The notes under the pieces: generated by a model
What the model was told of the DNA's origin: nothing
Database searches by the model: none
Seen by the model: the letters and a program-made list of their open reading frames with translations, nothing else
Part shown: positions 1-40,499 of the stretch, in pieces
How positions within the stretch are numbered: the first letter of the stretch is position 1
Layout of the letters: the number at the start of each line of letters is the position of its first letter
From: a virus
Taxonomy: Duplodnaviria > Heunggongvirae > Uroviricota > Caudoviricetes
DNA length: 40,499 nt
Virus record (IMG/VR): IMGVR_UViG_2667527965_000002
Direction: 5' to 3' (one strand)
Program-made: the position numbers and the translations under genes

Positions 1-1314
1 TTAACTTACTGATTTTAATAATCCTCCAGTACTGCTCTCGTGGCTATGGGGCATCAATGGGGCAAAATCTGCCAGCTTCTGATTCAGCATTGCGATCTGC
101 TCTGCGCTGCTGTCAGCCATCCATGCACCGTAAACATTGAACACCATCTGCGCGCTCGCATGCCCCATCTGACTGGCAATAAAACTCGGGTTTGCACCAG
201 CAGATAATGACCAGCACGCATAGGTATGTCGTGACTGGTACGCCTTTCTGTGTCTGATCCCCGCGCGCTTTAGTGCCGCTTCCCATGAGTCGCCTACTGA
301 ATCGACCCGGTAGATAAATCCGACCTGCTTACTGCGTCTGACCACATGCGGGTTAAAGACGAATGTACACTCATGGGTCACCGAACGACCGTACTCACGT
401 AACTGCACTTCAATGTGATATTGCCTGCCCAGCCTTGTCATTTCAGCCTGATTTTTCAGGATGCTGATTGCGGGCTGGATAAGATGCACCACTCGATCTG
501 TGCTTGCCTCGGTTTTCGGTAGAGTGAACTCACCAAGTTTCGTATAATTACGCCTGACGGTAATTGTTCCCGCCTTCAGGTCGATATCTTCCCAGGCCAG
601 GGAGACCAGTTCCCCGTGACGCATTCCTGTGTACACTGCTAATGACCACAGGTTTTTCGTCTGCTGATGCCGGCATGCATCTATCAGGCGAATAAATTCA
701 TCACGAGACAGAGGATCTGGTTCTGCCCTGGCTTTTTTCAGAGGTTTAATTCCCTCGAATGGGTTCACCTCTAAGTAACCGTGATCCGCAGCAAACTGAA
801 ACATTCCGGCCATTGTCGTCATGTAATAGTTCACAGTAACAACGCTTCGCCCTTTTGCCGGGGCTTTATTTTTCGTCGGACTCTGATAACCAGTTAGCAA
901 ATCTTTCCTGAGATACAGCAATTCCTCTTTGGTTACTGCTGACACCAGGCGATTACCTCCGATCCTCGGCACCATATTCCTTGCGACAGATTCATAGCGA
1001 TTGAATGCGTTCGCGCAGATTTCCATCCGTTTCAGATCCAGCCATTTTTCTTCAAGTTCTTTCACTGTAATGTCTTTTTTACTTACACCAAAAGCCTTGA
1101 GGTTAGGGGAGTCAGGAAACTGGGTTGCATAATCAAAGGTTCCTGTGCGGATGGCAAAACATACTGATGTCCGCAGTTCCCCGGCTATCTTTCTGTTCTT
1201 AGCGGTGTCAGGGACACCGAGACTTTCCCTGACACGCTTACCTTTAAAATTAAACCAGATGCGTAATGTGCCACCGTGGTTTTCGACGCCTGTTGGATAT
1301 GTGACTTTATCCAT
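1..1314 (-). CDS. int: Tyrosine site-specific integrase
   Basis: 437 aa ORF; N-terminal arm-binding-like region and C-terminal tyrosine recombinase-like region; first gene at prophage edge followed by a small excisionase-like ORF. Confidence 0.9.
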   Translation of the reverse strand: MDKVTYPTGVENHGGTLRIWFNFKGKRVRESLGVPDTAKNRKIAGELRTSVCFAIRTGTFDYATQFPDSPNLKAFGVSKKDITVKELEEKWLDLKRMEICANAFNRYESVARNMVPRIGGNRLVSAVTKEELLYLRKDLLTGYQSPTKNKAPAKGRSVVTVNYYMTTMAGMFQFAADHGYLEVNPFEGIKPLKKARAEPDPLSRDEFIRLIDACRHQQTKNLWSLAVYTGMRHGELVSLAWEDIDLKAGTITVRRNYTKLGEFTLPKTEASTDRVVHLIQPAISILKNQAEMTRLGRQYHIEVQLREYGRSVTHECTFVFNPHVVRRSKQVGFIYRVDSVGDSWEAALKRAGIRHRKAYQSRHTYACWSLSAGANPSFIASQMGHASAQMVFNVYGAWMADSSAEQIAMLNQKLADFAPLMPHSHESSTGGLLKSVS

Positions 1315-1372
1315 TGGTGTTACCTCCAGACGCCCAAGAGCGATACGAGCTTACCTTTTTCATGGCATCAAA

Positions 1373-1609
1373 TCACCCTGGCTGCTTGCTTTTCATTGAA
1401 GCGACCCAGGCATCTACAGCCTTTCTGTTATACATGCACTCACTGGAAGGTTTAGGATTTCCGTCAGGCGATACGTGGATATACTCCCTCCCAATCATCC
1501 AGCATTCTTTTCTGGCCCGGAGGATGGTACCGGGCTTGAGCCCGGTCACCGCGATCAGAACACTTTCACAAACCCAATCGTTGGGAGCTAACTGGAAAAT
1601 ATTGCTCAT
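1373..1609 (-). CDS. xis: Excisionase-like DNA-binding protein
   Basis: 78 aa ORF immediately upstream of int on the same strand; GREY-containing motif typical of small phage excisionases. Confidence 0.6.
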   Translation of the reverse strand: MSNIFQLAPNDWVCESVLIAVTGLKPGTILRARKECWMIGREYIHVSPDGNPKPSSECMYNRKAVDAWVASMKSKQPG

Positions 1610-1649
1610 AGTTATTTCTCCATTATCCCGGCTGCACCCGGGGAAAATT

Positions 1650-2228
1650 TTAGTTGTTGCTGGTGGTTGGGATTAGTTTCTGCCAAATCGCTGAAACATA
1701 TTTCGCCTGGTGGCGGGCATCAGCCAGTGCGTTATGTGCAACCCCATCAAATGGCATATCACGCTTAGGATCGAAACCTACAACTCTGCCTAATGTGACG
1801 ATGGTTCTGACGTCGTGATCATTCCAAAATTGCCACGGGCAAACCTGGCCGGCACGCTCATATGCGCCGCGCAATATAACGTTGTCGAAAGTAGCTCCAT
1901 TGCCCCAAACTTTTAAATATTTAGGGTTATCAGAATGCCGATTAATGAAATGGCTCAGTTCAGATAGGGCAGATGATATCGGCATCGCATCATCAACACA
2001 GATTGCTGATCGTGCTTCTGAGCTTTGTCTTAACCACCACAGAATAGTGTCACCGTCCGGCACCGCTCCCTGCTCCATAGCGCTTTCAAGATTAACAGCG
2101 GTGTAAAACTCCTGACCCAGTTCACCACTTTGCGGATCGAATAACACGGCACCAATGGAGACGATAGGGGCATTCGGCTTTTTGCCCATAGTTTCAAGAT
2201 CGATCATTAAATTGTTCACGTTATACAT
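1650..2228 (-). CDS. DEDDh-type 3'-5' exonuclease (DnaQ-like)
   Basis: MIDLETMG Exo I motif and later H-x4-D (HNALADA) motif; ATG at 2228 overlaps upstream stop (ATGTATAA); the longer track ORF begins with a non-ATG codon. Confidence 0.75.
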   Translation of the reverse strand: MYNVNNLMIDLETMGKKPNAPIVSIGAVLFDPQSGELGQEFYTAVNLESAMEQGAVPDGDTILWWLRQSSEARSAICVDDAMPISSALSELSHFINRHSDNPKYLKVWGNGATFDNVILRGAYERAGQVCPWQFWNDHDVRTIVTLGRVVGFDPKRDMPFDGVAHNALADARHQAKYVSAIWQKLIPTTSNN

Positions 2229-2904
2229 TCTCTTGATTAGGTGCTGTTGGCTGGTCACATCCCACACATGGGCAAGGACACATATTTTCTGATTGCTGCC
2301 AGCGGAAATAACCTGTGCCACCGCAGTATTTACAAGTTGAACCATCCGGAGTTACCGGAGAGTTGCCAGCCTGGAGAATAGATTTCAGCGCTGCCCTTGG
2401 CATTGCCGACCAGGCAAGAAATACGTCTGGCCTGTCGACATCTTCTGTCGGGAGAGTGTTTTCGATTTCGTCCAGCGCATCACTTAGCTTCTGAAATGCG
2501 TCGTCTGGAACAACGTGGCACTCTTCGCCATCAACATCTTGCTGACAGCTATCATCTGCGAGTTCGAATGCGGCCCCGCAAACATTGAGCAGCATTTCAA
2601 TAACGCGACGGTGTTCTGCTGTTACGCAATTCTCCGGCGCTACCGGCGCTCTCGGCTTGCCCTGGCTATCTGACGGCGCTAACGGAGCGTTTCTCAGTGC
2701 AGTGGCCAGCATTTCAATATCTACTGGTGCAGGCTCAGCACCAAACGCCGCAATTGCCCCTTCAATCACCTTCACAGCATCAGCCATTGCGTAGCCGAGA
2801 TTACCGCCGTCGCTTTGTGCTGCTGCTTTGCTGAGTATTTCGCGTATCTGGTGCAGGCGCTCGAGTGATACAGGACCGTGCGCCGGGTGGTTGTTAGTGG
2901 TCAT
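2221..2904 (-). CDS. Hypothetical phage protein with C-terminal Cys-rich (CxxC/CPCPC) region
   Basis: ORF in early-left operon; start ATG at 2904 overlaps upstream stop (ATGA) with GAGG about 9 nt upstream; alternative start at 2913. Confidence 0.55.
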   Translation of the reverse strand: MTTNNHPAHGPVSLERLHQIREILSKAAAQSDGGNLGYAMADAVKVIEGAIAAFGAEPAPVDIEMLATALRNAPLAPSDSQGKPRAPVAPENCVTAEHRRVIEMLLNVCGAAFELADDSCQQDVDGEECHVVPDDAFQKLSDALDEIENTLPTEDVDRPDVFLAWSAMPRAALKSILQAGNSPVTPDGSTCKYCGGTGYFRWQQSENMCPCPCVGCDQPTAPNQENV

Positions 2905-3233
2905 GCTGCCCATCCTCTGCGTAGATGGCCCAGCGCGTAACGCGCTTCTATCGGGTCTTCTTCTTCATATTCACAATTGACGCTTTTAACCATTGCCACA
3001 CAGCACTCGTTGCAACACCGATAGGACATGAGTTCGCCGTCGAATTTCCACGTCGTACTACGATGGATTTCACCCTTTAAAATTTCGCCAGCGCAAATGT
3101 GACATTTATATTCACCGCGAGAGGTAACAATTTTGTTCGATAGTTCGGTATCGCATGGCGTACCGAAATCACCTTCAAAAAGGTCAAAGTACAGTGCGTC
3201 GTCTAAATCCTGTTTGTTGAGTGAGTTAGTCAT
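2901..3233 (-). CDS. Hypothetical zinc-binding protein (CxxC ... CCNECC)
   Basis: ORF with paired cysteine motifs; start at 3233 chosen because the ORF upstream on this strand ends at 3226. Confidence 0.5.
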   Translation of the reverse strand: MTNSLNKQDLDDALYFDLFEGDFGTPCDTELSNKIVTSRGEYKCHICAGEILKGEIHRSTTWKFDGELMSYRCCNECCVAMVKSVNCEYEEEDPIEARYALGHLRRGWAA

Positions 3234-3570
3234 TCCAGGCCTCCAGCTCGTTCTGTATTTCCTCGTCAACCTCATCATTGGTGGCGTTCTTATTGAGTGT
3301 GCGCCGGGCTTCTTTCAGATATGACTCACGGCGTTCATCGTACCAGGCTGAGAATTCAGGCGACAAACCGTACAGGTACCCGAAAAAAGCAACCCTGGCA
3401 TTGTCCTCAGCCATACGCTCAACCATGCAATAAGCTGTAGTTAGTGCCGCTTCACGGATGTAACCGCGCAGGTCGCGCTTGCGCCAATACGGGCTATGTT
3501 TCGAGTCGCAGCGGCCTTTAAATTCGACGGTCCAGCGACGGATGCAACGTGCGTTCAGAGATTTACTCAT
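3226..3570 (-). CDS. Hypothetical phage protein
   Basis: 114 aa ORF; ATG overlaps stop of upstream gene (ATGA at 3567-3570). Confidence 0.55.
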   Translation of the reverse strand: MSKSLNARCIRRWTVEFKGRCDSKHSPYWRKRDLRGYIREAALTTAYCMVERMAEDNARVAFFGYLYGLSPEFSAWYDERRESYLKEARRTLNKNATNDEVDEEIQNELEAWND

Positions 3571-3821
3571 TGTGCAGTTCCCTTTCTGGCTGTGTTTAAT
3601 AGCTGGTTAAACATCATGGTTAAGCTGTTACTACACCCAAACGGCATATCGTTAACACGGTATGTTGGAATGCCCTTGCGAACACCAGACTTCACGATCC
3701 GGCCGGTGCCATAGAGTTGCGATAATGCACCAGCGATCGAAGCTGTCTTTTTGTTTAAACCCTTAGCTATTTCAGCGCTGGTGGCGTTGGGGTGAGCCTG
3801 GAGATATTCAAATACGGTCAT
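3567..3821 (-). CDS. Small winged-helix DNA-binding protein
   Basis: 84 aa; N-terminal helix-turn-helix-like segment (SAEIAKGLNKKTASIAGALSQL); translationally coupled to neighbours. Confidence 0.55.
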   Translation of the reverse strand: MTVFEYLQAHPNATSAEIAKGLNKKTASIAGALSQLYGTGRIVKSGVRKGIPTYRVNDMPFGCSNSLTMMFNQLLNTARKGTAQ

Positions 3822-3985
3822 GGCGTTTTACCTTTACGTTCCTGTTCCAGTTGCACCAGAGACTCTTTTAATGCTGCGAACGTAGCGTCCAGTCTGGTGG
3901 CGACTTCGCGCATAAGCGGTGCATGCTTTGGTGGCAATTCAGCAACGGAGGCAAACGCCTCCGCTACGAGTTCTTTTACCTTCAT
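3818..3985 (-). CDS. Small hypothetical protein (55 aa), not in supplied ORF track
   Basis: Manual translation MKVKELVAEAFASVAELPPKHAPLMREVATRLDATFAALKESLVQLEQERKGKTP; ATG overlaps stop of HD gene (ATGA) and its stop overlaps ATG of next gene (ATGA). Confidence 0.4.
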   Translation of the reverse strand: MKVKELVAEAFASVAELPPKHAPLMREVATRLDATFAALKESLVQLEQERKGKTP

Positions 3986-4521
3986 GCGGCGCATTGGCGC
4001 TGCTCCATCAATTCGTTAAAGCGATTGATGAACATGCCGTATGACTGGCCAGGACGAACTGGATTGATAATGAATAAATCCGTTGGGACAACTCCCTCGA
4101 GGCATGGCCACACGGAACCTTCGTCAACCTCAAAATCGCGGCGTTCGCTGGCGAGCATCACCAGATCGGCATATTTCACAGTTGGGTGTTGTTCCGTCGG
4201 TAGGCCGAACTTCTGCCGAATGGCTGCATCCACGCGAGCTTCGATCACCTGGTAATCCGGAAGCAGGTGCTTAAGCGGGGATGGGATGTCCTGCAGGTAG
4301 GCTTCAGCAGCATCATGAAGCAGTGCTTCTAATGCAAACTCCTGCGGAACGAGGTGGCTGGTTAAAACGCTATGCTGGCCGACGCTATAAAACTCAGGAA
4401 GATGCCCTGCAAAACGGCAGATATGAGACAACGCGGTAGCAATATCCTCGATCACGATATCGTCCTGTTGGATATCGAGGTAATTAAAATGTTTGCCGGA
4501 TAATGTCTGAATGTAGCTCAT
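3982..4521 (-). CDS. HD-domain phosphohydrolase (YfbR-like 5'-deoxynucleotidase family)
   Basis: HD-domain-like H...HD...D spacing (SHICRFAGH...LLHDAAEAY...D); start at ATG 4521 preceded by GGAG; track ORF begins at an upstream GTG. Confidence 0.7.
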   Translation of the reverse strand: MSYIQTLSGKHFNYLDIQQDDIVIEDIATALSHICRFAGHLPEFYSVGQHSVLTSHLVPQEFALEALLHDAAEAYLQDIPSPLKHLLPDYQVIEARVDAAIRQKFGLPTEQHPTVKYADLVMLASERRDFEVDEGSVWPCLEGVVPTDLFIINPVRPGQSYGMFINRFNELMEQRQCAA

Positions 4522-4628
4522 GGTTTTCTCCATATTGGCGCGCTGCACCGCGCTATTAAATTAATGAATTGCTAAATTTAGCGTGCAGCAACCCAACCCA
4601 TGACATGGGTTAATTACGGTCTGGGGTA

Positions 4629-5546
4629 TTAGGCTGCGGGTTTTTGTGGCTGTTCTTCTTTGTACGAAAGAAGATCACACATCAGGTTTACTACTTTGCT
4701 GAATTGGAGTAGATCCGTCCCGGCCTGATGGCGCCATTGAAATGCTTTATCATCTTCATCGTTGAATGTTTGGGCTTGGGTATTGATGCGCGAAAAATGG
4801 AAATTTTCGGTGAGGATGAACGATACACCGCATCCTGCTAGCTCCATTTTATCAGCGGTAAAGCCGCTATTAAGGCTATCAACTAGCTCGCTTTGAATTG
4901 AGTCGTGTTCAGCTGAGTAGCGAATAACTTCATTTTGATCGGCAAGGCGGGACAGCTGGATATAATTGCCGACGGTAAACCCTTCAAAAGCATTGGCCAC
5001 GCCATTGATATAGTTTTTCAACCGCGTAGTTAAACCGTTCTTAATATCGCTAATGTTGATTGTTTCTGTTTTAACGGAACCGACAACTTTCACCAGCATA
5101 GCCACAGCCATACCGGCAATATTTTTATTGGTCGTATTGACCACTAATAGCTTTTCGTTGGTGCTGTACAACGCAAGGATCAGCGTTGATTTAACAAATG
5201 CCCGTTTACACAGGTCAACGCGGACGCTGTCGATAATTGCTAATCGTTCGATACGTTTGATTTTACTCCCGGACATATCTTCGATTCTTTGGATCCGTGC
5301 TGCGGCTTCCTTCAAAACAACATGCTGGGGAATGATTTTCTGATCATGGCGGATCACGATGGCATACCCACCTGATATTGGGGTGACCAATTCGCCAGTG
5401 ATCGGGTTTGGCACAAAAGAGGCGCGTGAAAACTCAGTTTCACCAATCTCGGAGTAGGGGAGTTCAAGCAGATGCCCCTCGATAGCTTCAATGCTAGGTA
5501 GTGTGGCGCGGTACACGATTGCGTTACGGAACTTAGGTAATTTCAT
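4629..5546 (-). CDS. rdgC: Recombination-associated protein RdgC-like
   Basis: 305 aa; N-terminus MKLPKFRNAIVYR and length match the RdgC family. Confidence 0.8.
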   Translation of the reverse strand: MKLPKFRNAIVYRATLPSIEAIEGHLLELPYSEIGETEFSRASFVPNPITGELVTPISGGYAIVIRHDQKIIPQHVVLKEAAARIQRIEDMSGSKIKRIERLAIIDSVRVDLCKRAFVKSTLILALYSTNEKLLVVNTTNKNIAGMAVAMLVKVVGSVKTETINISDIKNGLTTRLKNYINGVANAFEGFTVGNYIQLSRLADQNEVIRYSAEHDSIQSELVDSLNSGFTADKMELAGCGVSFILTENFHFSRINTQAQTFNDEDDKAFQWRHQAGTDLLQFSKVVNLMCDLLSYKEEQPQKPAA

Positions 5547-38754: not shown

Positions 38755-39083
38755 ATGCAACTACAACGCCTTATTTTTCCGGACGTTCCGGTATATATCC
38801 CTGTTTATGGGGATCTCATTTCGGCAGGCTTTCCCAGTCCTGCCGCTGACTATATCGAGAGCGGCATCGATCTGTGTCGCATCTTATTCTCCACCCCTCA
38901 TCGACATATACACTTCGCGTCGCCAGAGATTCAATGATCAATGCCGGCATCCTCGATGGTTCATACCTTCTCATTGATTTCAGCCTCCATCCCGAAGACG
39001 GTGATATTGTCGTCAGTAACATCGTGGGCGGGTCTGGTTTCTACAAAGATTCCCGCACAACGGGCGGGAATCGGGTAAGCTGA
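38755..39083 (+). pseudogene. umuD-like S24 peptidase gene, frameshifted and 3'-truncated
   Basis: Frame 1 encodes ...GFPSPAADYIESGIDL..., frame 0 continues ...HPSSTYTLRVARDSMINAGILDG...; frames switch around 38885-38892; ORF ends well before the expected C-terminus. Confidence 0.6.
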
Positions 39084-39102: not shown

Positions 39103-39705
39103 CTAGTTTAAAAATGGATAAACTTTAAAAGAAGCCCATAAATCATTGTTAAGTGCCAACAAACCTACGGAGATATAGGATAATATCGCAAGTGCTCCTG
39201 TAAAATAAAGTATGGATTTCTTTATTTTTTTCCAAAGAATTAGGGCTGGAATTGAAGTTACGGCAATCACACCCATCTGATAACAAAATTGTCTGGCAAT
39301 GTCACCATCACTCCAAGGGTATATAAAAACATAAGGGGCGAAAAGTATTAAATGGACAAGTCTAAGTATAACCCCTATACATGCCCCAGGTATTGCAAAA
39401 AAGCCCCCCGCGCTTTGTAATAATAAGCTTGCCCTCATGCCGGGTATGAGAATAAAAAAATTAAGAATAGCCCAGAATATTAATATTATCGTGGCATAGC
39501 CAAAAAGAGTGCTTAACCCAGATTGACCGCCAACTGCTGTAAACTGTGGCGTCTGGTAAGACTGGCTCGGCTGACTAACTGATTTGCTGGCATCACATGC
39601 ACTTTGCCAGCTCTCTGCATTGTCTGCCTGCCATTTATGATCATACTGTGTAAAAGGCCTGTCACTGGTAACATACTTGCCTTCATCATCTTGCCTAACA
39701 CCCAT
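39103..39705 (-). CDS. AT-rich hypothetical polytopic membrane protein
   Basis: 200 aa; about 70-aa polar N-terminal region then about four hydrophobic helices; low GC. Confidence 0.55.
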   Translation of the reverse strand: MGVRQDDEGKYVTSDRPFTQYDHKWQADNAESWQSACDASKSVSQPSQSYQTPQFTAVGGQSGLSTLFGYATIILIFWAILNFFILIPGMRASLLLQSAGGFFAIPGACIGVILRLVHLILFAPYVFIYPWSDGDIARQFCYQMGVIAVTSIPALILWKKIKKSILYFTGALAILSYISVGLLALNNDLWASFKVYPFLN

Positions 39706-39902
39706 ATTTAAGCCCCACTATTTTTATTCATGCCGACATGTGTAGTTGTACGACTTATACTTAATGGAAGGTACGATCCCGTAGTCGTTACACTTGATAT
39801 GATAACGCAATATGACCTATACAGAAGAGAACAATTACAGCAACCACTTCCGGTAGGATGCGGTCTCTAGCATTCAACATAACTCTCTGGGGCTTTCAGG
39901 AT

Positions 39903-40142
39903 TTAACCCGCAGCCAGCCTCATATCGGCCTCTTCAAACATATCTTCCAACATGCGATTCAGTTTTTCCTGATCACTCTTGCTGGCATCGCTGTTTAAGC
40001 CGTTCGCCTGCATCGGCTTAACCTTCACTTCTGCATCCGGAAAGATCCGGTGCACTCGCTTTGTTAACTCATTCAGAATTATTTCTCTGGCACCTGTTAA
40101 TCCTTCAACATTCCGTTTGTCGTACACCAACTCAACGAACAT
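39903..40142 (-). CDS. DinI-like DNA-damage-inducible protein
   Basis: About 79 aa from ATG 40142 (GGAGG SD); sequence and acidic C-terminus resemble DinI family; LexA-like box upstream. Confidence 0.65.
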   Translation of the reverse strand: MFVELVYDKRNVEGLTGAREIILNELTKRVHRIFPDAEVKVKPMQANGLNSDASKSDQEKLNRMLEDMFEEADMRLAAG

Positions 40143-40180
40143 ACCGCCTCCAAAGCAACAATGATTTTGCACGCAATTTA

Positions 40181-40200
40181 TACTGTTTATTTATATAGCG
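40181..40200. promoter_or_regulatory. LexA-box-like palindrome upstream of the DinI-like gene
   Basis: TACTGTTTATTTATATAGCG: CTGT-N8-ATAG, one mismatch from the SOS box consensus. Confidence 0.5.
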
Positions 40201-40207
40201 TCAACGG

Positions 40208-40290
40208 TTGGGCACGTAGCTTTTTAAGGAAGGTTTTTGGGGCATGTATGGGGCATAAATGCCAGTTTTGGGGCATGGTTGGGACATTTT
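40208..40290. repeat. Cluster of direct repeats TTGGGGCAT (candidate integrase arm-type sites)
   Basis: GGGGCAT at 40240-40246, 40250-40256, 40270-40276; GGGACAT at 40281-40287; GGGCAC at 40210-40215; 110-190 bp inside the inferred junction. Confidence 0.4.
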
Positions 40291-40389
40291 AACTCATATG
40301 AACTTAACCGAATTTCATATGGAGGCGTCTTATAATGCACTGATTAACTTAAAGAAAACACATGCTCTTGGGCGTTCTTTAGTGATTTT

Positions 40390-40420
40390 AAAAATTACCG
40401 CGTCACGCAGTTAAAGTGGC
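40390..40420. other. Inferred prophage-host right junction (attR core region)
   Basis: Host-like DUF72 reading frame entering from the right edge diverges from the family pattern and stops here. Confidence 0.4.
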
Positions 40421-40499
40421 GGGCATACTCTTCAAGGCTGGTGATCCCCAACCGCACCCATTTAGGATGCGACCATTGCGGTAGACCGATGTAAATCAT
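40395..40499 (-). pseudogene. 5' fragment of a host DUF72/YecE-like gene truncated by prophage insertion
   Basis: Minus-strand ATG at window end encodes MIYIGLPQWSHPKWVRLGITSLEEYARHFNCV then TR-stop; matches the conserved N-terminal pattern of DUF72 proteins. Confidence 0.5.

Follow-up and report, generated by a model that had tools for sequence, protein, structure and literature searches.

The 40,499-nucleotide viral stretch analysed here (IMG/VR record IMGVR_UViG_2667527965_000002; hereafter the window, in its full length) ends in a junction between a prophage and the host gene yecE. We put at about 0.92 the probability of the whole reading that follows, namely that the 11 bp at 40404-40414 are the attR core of a complete phiP27-type lambdoid prophage in yecE, with pairs of GGGRCA repeats as arm-type sites of its integrase (Int). 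Site-specific recombination would have put the prophage into codons 29-32 of chromosomal yecE, splitting the gene such that its first 96 bp would stay beside yecD at the right end and the remainder would lie beyond int, to the left of the window. The catalytic and core-binding domains of Int would recognise inverted half-sites around the heptamer TTAACTG, and its N-terminal Arm-DNA-bind_2 domain would bind tandem GGGRCA sites 11 bp apart, with two such pairs on the tail-side arm and one on the int-side arm.

An earlier note on this DNA had read the minus strand at the window end as the N-terminus of a DUF72 protein that stops two codons past the break in the host gene, had placed an attR junction near 40395-40410, and had named yecE as a documented integration locus; it had also proposed aligning the window end to an intact yecE locus and looking for a matching core repeat at the other prophage end. 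All of these points were borne out. Alignment with the intact yecD-yecE locus of MG1655, in which the uninterrupted yecE (b1868) represents the empty attB of another strain, revealed that the 96 bp from 40404 to the window end are 100% identical to the 5′ end of yecE, and that this similarity breaks abruptly at 40403/40404, where the core is located. The true right boundary of the prophage is 40403/40404, and the 96 bp that close the window belong to the host. Past the break, the phage supplies Thr-Arg-stop to a minus-strand open reading frame (ORF) of 34 codons that translates as MIYIGLPQWSHPKWVRLGITSLEEYARHFNCVTR followed by the stop. The same ORF is labelled as an incomplete pseudogene by the Prokaryotic Genome Annotation Pipeline (PGAP) in related genomes, and native YecE matched PF01904 (DUF72) in a domain search. 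With a 600-bp query from the window end (39900-40499), partial matches were obtained in 5424 of 5426 complete Escherichia coli genomes, and matches of at least 80% coverage in only 7.

The core itself, CACGCAGTTAA, is identical to both the attL (bases 1-11) and the attR (last 11 bases) misc_features of phage phiP27 (NC_003356), and the same 11 bp are centred in the 21-bp att of Shiga toxin (Stx) phages at yecE. Published work agrees with this annotation that phages integrate in yecE: a 21-bp att and an attP verified by polymerase chain reaction were described for Stx1a and Stx2a prophages of this locus (Nakamura et al. 2021, PMC8112680), and a review names yecE among the Stx-phage insertion sites (PMC8065619).

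Base 1 of the window is the last base of the int stop codon, and attL lies outside. The flanks were examined in other assemblies that are identical to the window over 5.3 kb (left) or 7.3 kb (right). On the left, a second core copy was present 18 bp beyond the window edge. Contig L021, which is 100% identical to window 1-5314, continues past the int stop with CCCCTAACGCCCGTCATG-TTAACTGCGTG-GAGGGCAAC..., corresponding to the core and then yecE from codon 33, and the yecE remainder is followed in order by yecN, cmoA, cmoB and torZ. TTAACTGCGTG was located 18 bp past the int stop in all eight listed contigs with an identical Int, and yecE′ and then yecN followed in seven of them, L021 included; in the eighth, FAM21845 (L006 999-3022), a second element interrupts a partial yecE remnant beside attL, after 432 bp. 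The integrase adjoins the yecE remainder, or this partial remnant, in 8/8. The sequence to the left of window position 1 would be expected to read CATGTTAACTGCGTGGAGGG, followed by the yecE remainder. On the right, L013, L014 and L019, three contigs that match the final 7300 bp of the window at 100% identity, run on into full-length yecD, aspS, nudB, yebC and ruvC. Both junctions were found around one prophage in the complete genomes MB06232 and AR_0372. As a side observation, the element inserted in FAM21845 has a gene for a 507-residue large serine recombinase with further phage genes, among them baseplate and tape measure, behind it, and the yecE locus of this strain holds two tandem elements, each with a different recombinase.

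The integrase next to this junction is of the phiP27 type. It matched Arm-DNA-bind_2 (PF12167) over residues 7-70 (E 1.5e-24) as well as PF00589, and its int-xis DNA is 85.6% identical to that of the Stx2e phage phiP27 and 86% to that of PhiR49_2. The protein is 90% identical to the integrase of PhiR49_2, 74% to that of the Stx1a/Stx2a yecE phages, 69% to that of the Enterobacter phage CobraSix, 68% to that of VT2-Sakai, 52% to that of Yersinia phage 21.09, and 44% to IntR of the K-12 cryptic prophage Rac. This integrase type is carried by 329 of the 5426 complete E. coli genomes.

Read in the direction of yecE, attB is GCCCGCCACT-TTAACTG-CGTGGAGGGC, attL is GCCCGTCATG-TTAACTG-CGTGGAGGGC, and attR is GCCCGCCACT-TTAACTG-CGTGACGCGG, from which attP can be deduced as GCCCGTCATG-TTAACTG-CGTGACGCGG, with a deduced joint that would include ...ACCGCGTCACGCAGTTAACATGACGGGCGTTAGGGG... 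In the record of the packaged phage CharmingMan, the tail-side arm, core, 18 bp and int stop of this deduced attP follow one another without a break. Inverted half-sites flank TTAACTG, taking the form GTCAYG / CRTGAC in attP and CCACT / CGTGG in attB, such that attP reads GTCATG-TTAACTG-CGTGAC and attB reads CCACT-TTAACTG-CGTGG. A natural marker is provided by the lysogen AR_0372, in which attR reads TTAACTG-C and attL reads TTAACTG-T, and in which both the base just before and the base right after the heptamer keep their parental origin at each site. Because these flanking bases keep their parental origin, we infer that both strand exchanges are confined to TTAACTG.

Two further observations touch on the core. 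In one IMG/VR contig (L104 2815-2860), the int-side arm after TTAACTG is joined to a myovirus-type baseplate region (DUF2612 / baseplate J), which may represent a prophage-in-prophage insertion at a secondary site. This join was not retained as proof of the overlap: the uninterrupted sequence (L116 290-330) reads GTTAAAGCTG / GTTAAAGCTGTTAATG, with a 2-bp insertion or deletion relative to the overlap, and is ambiguous. Furthermore, a terminator-like hairpin (ACTGCG-TGA-CGCGGT, 6-bp stem) with a T-run, at 40397-40411 on the minus strand, spans the boundary between core and arm, and would come after int in attP and after yecE′ in attR. A sib- or terminator-like element across attP is not claimed, as the stem falls on the core-type inverted repeat and is weaker in phiP27 and Stx1_14040.

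Inside the junction, GGGGCAT is present at 40239, 40250 and 40270, and GGGACAT at 40281. These four repeats make up two GGGRCA-N5-GGGRCA pairs (40239-40286), 118-165 bp from the junction. The earlier note had claimed four to five GGGGCAT-type repeats 110-190 bp inside and had assigned them an arm-type role: their position and four of the repeats stand, as does the assigned role, which is supported by conservation among relatives and by the Arm-DNA-bind_2 domain of the integrase, whereas the fifth (GGGCACG at ~40210) is not conserved in relatives and was left uncounted. A third pair (48/59) is embedded in the last codons of int, where it encodes the C-terminal FAPLMPH. Four GGGRCA sites within 60 bp were reached in none of 1000 simulations under a dinucleotide model, and same-strand GGGRCA pairs 11 bp apart occur three times in the 40.5 kb (0.017 expected), all of them on the att arms.

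The layout of these pairs was compared in an eight-way attP alignment of the window, phiP27, CharmingMan, PhiR49_2, Stx1_14040, VT2-Sakai, CobraSix and Yersinia phage 21.09, with distances measured from the first core base. Arm sites were located 175/164/134/123 bp upstream and 76/87 bp downstream of the core start in phiP27, 174/163/133/122 bp upstream and 76/87 bp downstream in CharmingMan, and 131/120 bp upstream and 75/86 bp downstream in Stx1_14040, which is without the distal pair; for PhiR49_2, the alignment shows all three pairs. Neither the proximal tail-side pair nor the int-side pair varies across the eight attP regions, their distances being about the same, and both are kept in VT2-Sakai (integrated at wrbA), CobraSix and Yersinia phage 21.09 despite unrelated cores. 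The distal pair was found in five of the eight (window, phiP27, CharmingMan, PhiR49_2 and VT2-Sakai). Outside this alignment, a GGGGCA-N5-GGGGCA pair lies in Rac (L118 1674-1690), with the intR stop codon on one side and ttcA on the other, and because this pair stands beside intR, the motif extends to a 44%-identical integrase with another target. The repeats behave as arm-type sites would be expected to, since the motif is distinct from the core, is present on both arms, and is kept together with the N-terminal domain while the core changes. Taken together, these data indicate that the GGGRCA repeats are very probably the arm-binding sites of the integrase. The features of the attachment region are listed in Table 1.

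Table 1. Attachment-site features and adjoining genes, in window coordinates
Feature	Position	Strand	Basis or remark
Tyrosine integrase, 437 residues, phiP27-type, N-terminal arm-binding domain	1-1314	-	PF12167 and PF00589
Putative int-side arm-type pair (lambda's P′)	48-64	+	starts 76 and 87 bp after core start in attP
Excisionase, DUF1233 family	1373-1609	-	PF06806, E 6.8e-32
dinI-like, final phage gene ahead of the att arm, whose inner limit it marks	39903-40204	-	PF06183
dinI promoter-like site	40175-40204		promoter scan
LexA-like box at dinI	40183-40198		box search; homologous phi80 site annotated as LexA box
Putative distal arm-type pair GGGGCAtgtatGGGGCA, tail-side arm	40239-40255	+	starts 165 and 154 bp before core
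Putative core-proximal arm-type pair GGGGCAtggttGGGACA, tail-side arm (lambda's P)	40270-40286	+	starts 134 and 123 bp before core
Two CATATG(A) elements, 21 bp apart, between arm sites and IHF-like site	40294-40321	.	
Candidate integration host factor (IHF) site AATCAGTGCATTA, perfect match to WATCARNNNNTTR	40333-40345	-	consensus search
Core-proximal conserved block GCTCTTGGGCGTTCTTTAGTGATTTT, 26 bp	40364-40389	.	7/8 attP regions
Truncated yecE′ ORF, 34 residues: 32 host codons plus phage-supplied Thr-Arg-stop	40395-40499	-	ORF list
attR common core CACGCAGTTAA, 11 bp	40404-40414	.	phiP27 annotation and attL copy
Host DNA, first 96 bp of yecE (codons 1-32), att core at its end	40404-40499	-	MG1655 identity
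Putative 7-bp overlap TTAACTG (strand-exchange region)	40408-40414	-	AR_0372 polymorphism

It might alternatively be argued that the junction is real, and that the GGGRCA repeats are operators for another protein (an excisionase or a dinI regulator) or an accident of composition. The repeats lie ~40 bp from the dinI promoter and LexA box, the GGGGCAT heptamer is not enriched over the whole window (11 found versus 6.1 expected), and the arm role is predicted from sequence comparison. However, a matching pair is present on the other arm, inside int, and the pairs persist where no dinI lies beside att and where the core differs (VT2-Sakai, CobraSix, Yersinia phage 21.09, Rac). Moreover, the presence of the pairs tracks integrases with the Pfam arm-binding domain, and their clustering was never reached in the simulations. 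We therefore regard the operator or composition reading as unlikely.

Going beyond the window, GGGRCA-N5-GGGRCA could be the arm code of the whole Arm-DNA-bind_2 family, constant across cores (yecE, wrbA, ttcA and others), with one pair in the last codons of int and the block GCTCTTGGRCGWTCTT as a shared accessory site. We advance this only tentatively, at slightly under even odds, for a family taken to comprise phiP27, the Stx yecE phages, VT2-Sakai/933W-type phages, Rac IntR, and the Enterobacter and Yersinia relatives. No description of a GGGRCA arm-site rule or of the 7-bp overlap was found in the literature, although the library searched was incomplete and this is weak evidence of novelty; the family-wide rule and the overlap may be undescribed so far. 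If true, the GGGRCA code would offer a simple rule for finding where attP and the ends of the element lie, applicable to hundreds of Stx and lambdoid prophages, and together with the TTAACTG overlap it would provide transferable att markers for a large family of integrases, those of many Stx phages among them.

The window end alone is no proof of a live attR, because phi80-type phages carry the identical junction as a fossil. In phi80 (JX871397; L005 3476-3934), the same DinI, arm and yecE′ stretch is annotated as 'N-terminal fragment, DUF72 (pseudogene)' at 1.1 kb from the phage's own attP, and mEp237 and K-12-derived prophages at yciI-tonB also carry this DinI-arm-core-yecE′ block, which corresponds to window 39903-40499. 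The closest match to the window end in a complete genome, that of strain SZQ1 (99.5% over 600 bp), is located off yecE, and in SZQ1, XL10-Gold and JCL301 the window end matches a second genome site besides the yecE locus. Inspection of the SZQ1 and XL10-Gold loci (L001, L002 4490-4950) revealed DinI, arm, core and yecE′ (96 bp), then ~220-234 bp of the 3′ end of yecD, and past this truncated piece phage DNA with a tail-collar fragment and a Pin-type invertase, before the phi80 attachment region at yciI-tonB is reached. The fossil is probably the product of an ancestral yecE prophage that excised aberrantly and took along ~320 bp of host DNA. A yecE′ fragment beside DinI does not by itself prove integration at yecE.

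On these grounds, the yecE′ of the window might be a dead remnant inside a phage that integrates elsewhere, as phi80, mEp237 and the SZQ1 and XL10-Gold elements do at yciI-tonB, and the window, which stops exactly at the yecE ATG, hides the sequence beyond. However, the integrase of the window is of the phiP27 type, and phi80 is not among its int-xis matches; in every contig inspected, this integrase adjoins the yecE remainder or a partial remnant. In addition, intact yecD-aspS follows in the three contigs that match the right end at 100% identity, whereas SZQ1 differs from the window at 40349, 40419 and 40482, two of which lie in the 'host' fragment. The fossil reading of the window end was rejected on the integrase type and the 100%-identical contigs, and we consider it very improbable. 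Still further down, a chance or paralogous similarity to yecE can practically be dismissed, given the 96 bp of complete identity, the correct synteny on both sides in the identical contigs, and the DUF72 remainder adjoining int.

Several points nevertheless weigh against a live phiP27-type attR with GGGRCA arm sites. SZQ1 is 99.96% identical to the last 7.3 kb of the window and has no live junction there. The window holds neither attL nor any sequence past the yecE start codon, and both flanks are deduced from other assemblies. The distal arm pair is missing in some relatives. The candidate roles of the IHF-like site, the CATATG elements and the conserved block derive from consensus matches and conservation, and Int binding, excision and circularisation are proposed for this prophage on the basis of sequence comparison.

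The edges of the window bear on how such records are to be read. Most of the IMG/VR contigs retrieved with this integrase stop, like the window, exactly 3 bp past the int coding sequence, which suggests that gene calls, not att sites, set the boundaries of the window; such boundary calls leave out attL, yet take in host DNA at the other end. Nearly all IMG/VR relatives of the integrase shared at least 90% identity and the same cut at the int stop, and added little diversity. The main value of the present analysis is that of an annotation check, which fixes the right boundary and reveals that the window begins at the int stop and thus misses attL by 18 bp on the left.

Between the arm sites and the core, several candidate accessory sites were noted that IHF and the excisionase (Xis) might use. 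The IHF consensus has six matches in the whole window, and the site listed in Table 1 is the only one within 40100-40499; judged by eye in the alignment, the homologous position is perfect in PhiR49_2 and has one mismatch each in phiP27 and CharmingMan. The 26-bp block is kept in VT2-Sakai (wrbA) and CobraSix despite their different cores, which would suggest an accessory-protein site. CharmingMan and PhiR49_2 retain the CATATG(A) elements, which are degenerate in phiP27; a function as an excisionase or bending-protein site is speculative.

As to the target gene, the 18 bp on the phage side of attL encode NARHV in frame, resembling the native YARHF, which suggests that attP might retain a degenerate copy of the target sequence. 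At attL (window 1-22; L007 2249-3022; L021 5293-6066), gene callers, PGAP among them, predicted either a 257-residue 'DUF72 domain-containing protein' from an ATT start inside the 3′ end of int or a 241-residue protein from the GTG of the core. No canonical start codon was found upstream of the yecE remainder at attL, and the remnant is without positions 1-21 of the DUF72 model. A functional chimeric YecE at attL was rejected, given that it would have no canonical start and would have lost the N-terminal segment; the predictions are probably a caller artefact. Integration probably inactivates yecE, because the missing YecE residues, 1-32, correspond in alignment to the N-terminus of the solved homologue 1VPY.

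Further inward, the arm borders on the dinI-like gene. In two further contigs, a module of DinI and a gene for a 200-residue protein is present at other chromosomal sites, and homology to the window ends at ~40146. Because this homology stops there, the arm (40147-40403) travels with the att and int type. The 200-residue ORF beside dinI (39103-39705, minus strand) had no Pfam match, and an identical protein was found in prophages of at least four contexts (yecE, att-phi80, beside a BapA-like gene, and beside yejM), such that it behaves like a mobile moron. Short ORFs at 38755-39083 resemble an S24 (UmuD/LexA-type) peptidase, and their SZQ1 counterpart is annotated as a 69-residue 'S24 family peptidase'; this region looks like a truncated umuD-like remnant.

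Compared with known systems, the finding is an ordinary one, since published work and GenBank annotation already cover the junction, the target gene and the core, and by all of the defining features that can be read at the sequence level the window is a member of the phiP27-type yecE att family. It shares with phiP27 (NC_003356 / AJ298298) the identical 11-bp core, the same type of integrase-excisionase module, and arm pairs that start 134/123 bp before and 76/87 bp after the core. It differs from phiP27 in that its distal pair lies 10 bp closer to the core and its genome is another mosaic, with mEp234/HK633-like tail genes and a phi80-type DinI right end; unlike in phiP27, no stx was seen in the window ORF survey. 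The Stx1a/Stx2a yecE prophages (LC567819) have the same target and a 21-bp imperfect duplication that contains CACGCAGTTAA, and their proximal and int-side GGGRCA pairs lie about equally far from the core, whereas their integrase is only 74% identical at the protein level, the distal pair is absent, other bases flank the core, and between the sites the arms have largely unrelated sequences.

The phi80 pseudogene PHI80_28 (also in mEp237) resembles the window end in its DinI, arm sites, core and yecE′, at 97% identity. In phi80, however, this block is internal and inert, with a truncated piece of yecD and phage DNA behind it, and the phage relies on another integrase and an attP 1.1 kb away, whereas in the window it is the live boundary between prophage and host.

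In phage lambda, attP and attR are bound by a heterobivalent Int at arm-type sites (2+3), together with IHF and Xis, and a 7-bp overlap lies between inverted core-type sites. The window resembles this arrangement in its short core, its arm-type repeats on both arms, the separate N-terminal domain of Int, the position of int beside attL, and the putative accessory sites between arm and core. In contrast, the arm motif GGGRCA and the N-domain family PF12167 are not those of lambda, and the window has 4+2 sites in strict 11-bp pairs, with the int-side pair within the int coding sequence, rather than lambda's 2+3. The system of the window is not a member of the lambda Int family in the narrow sense.

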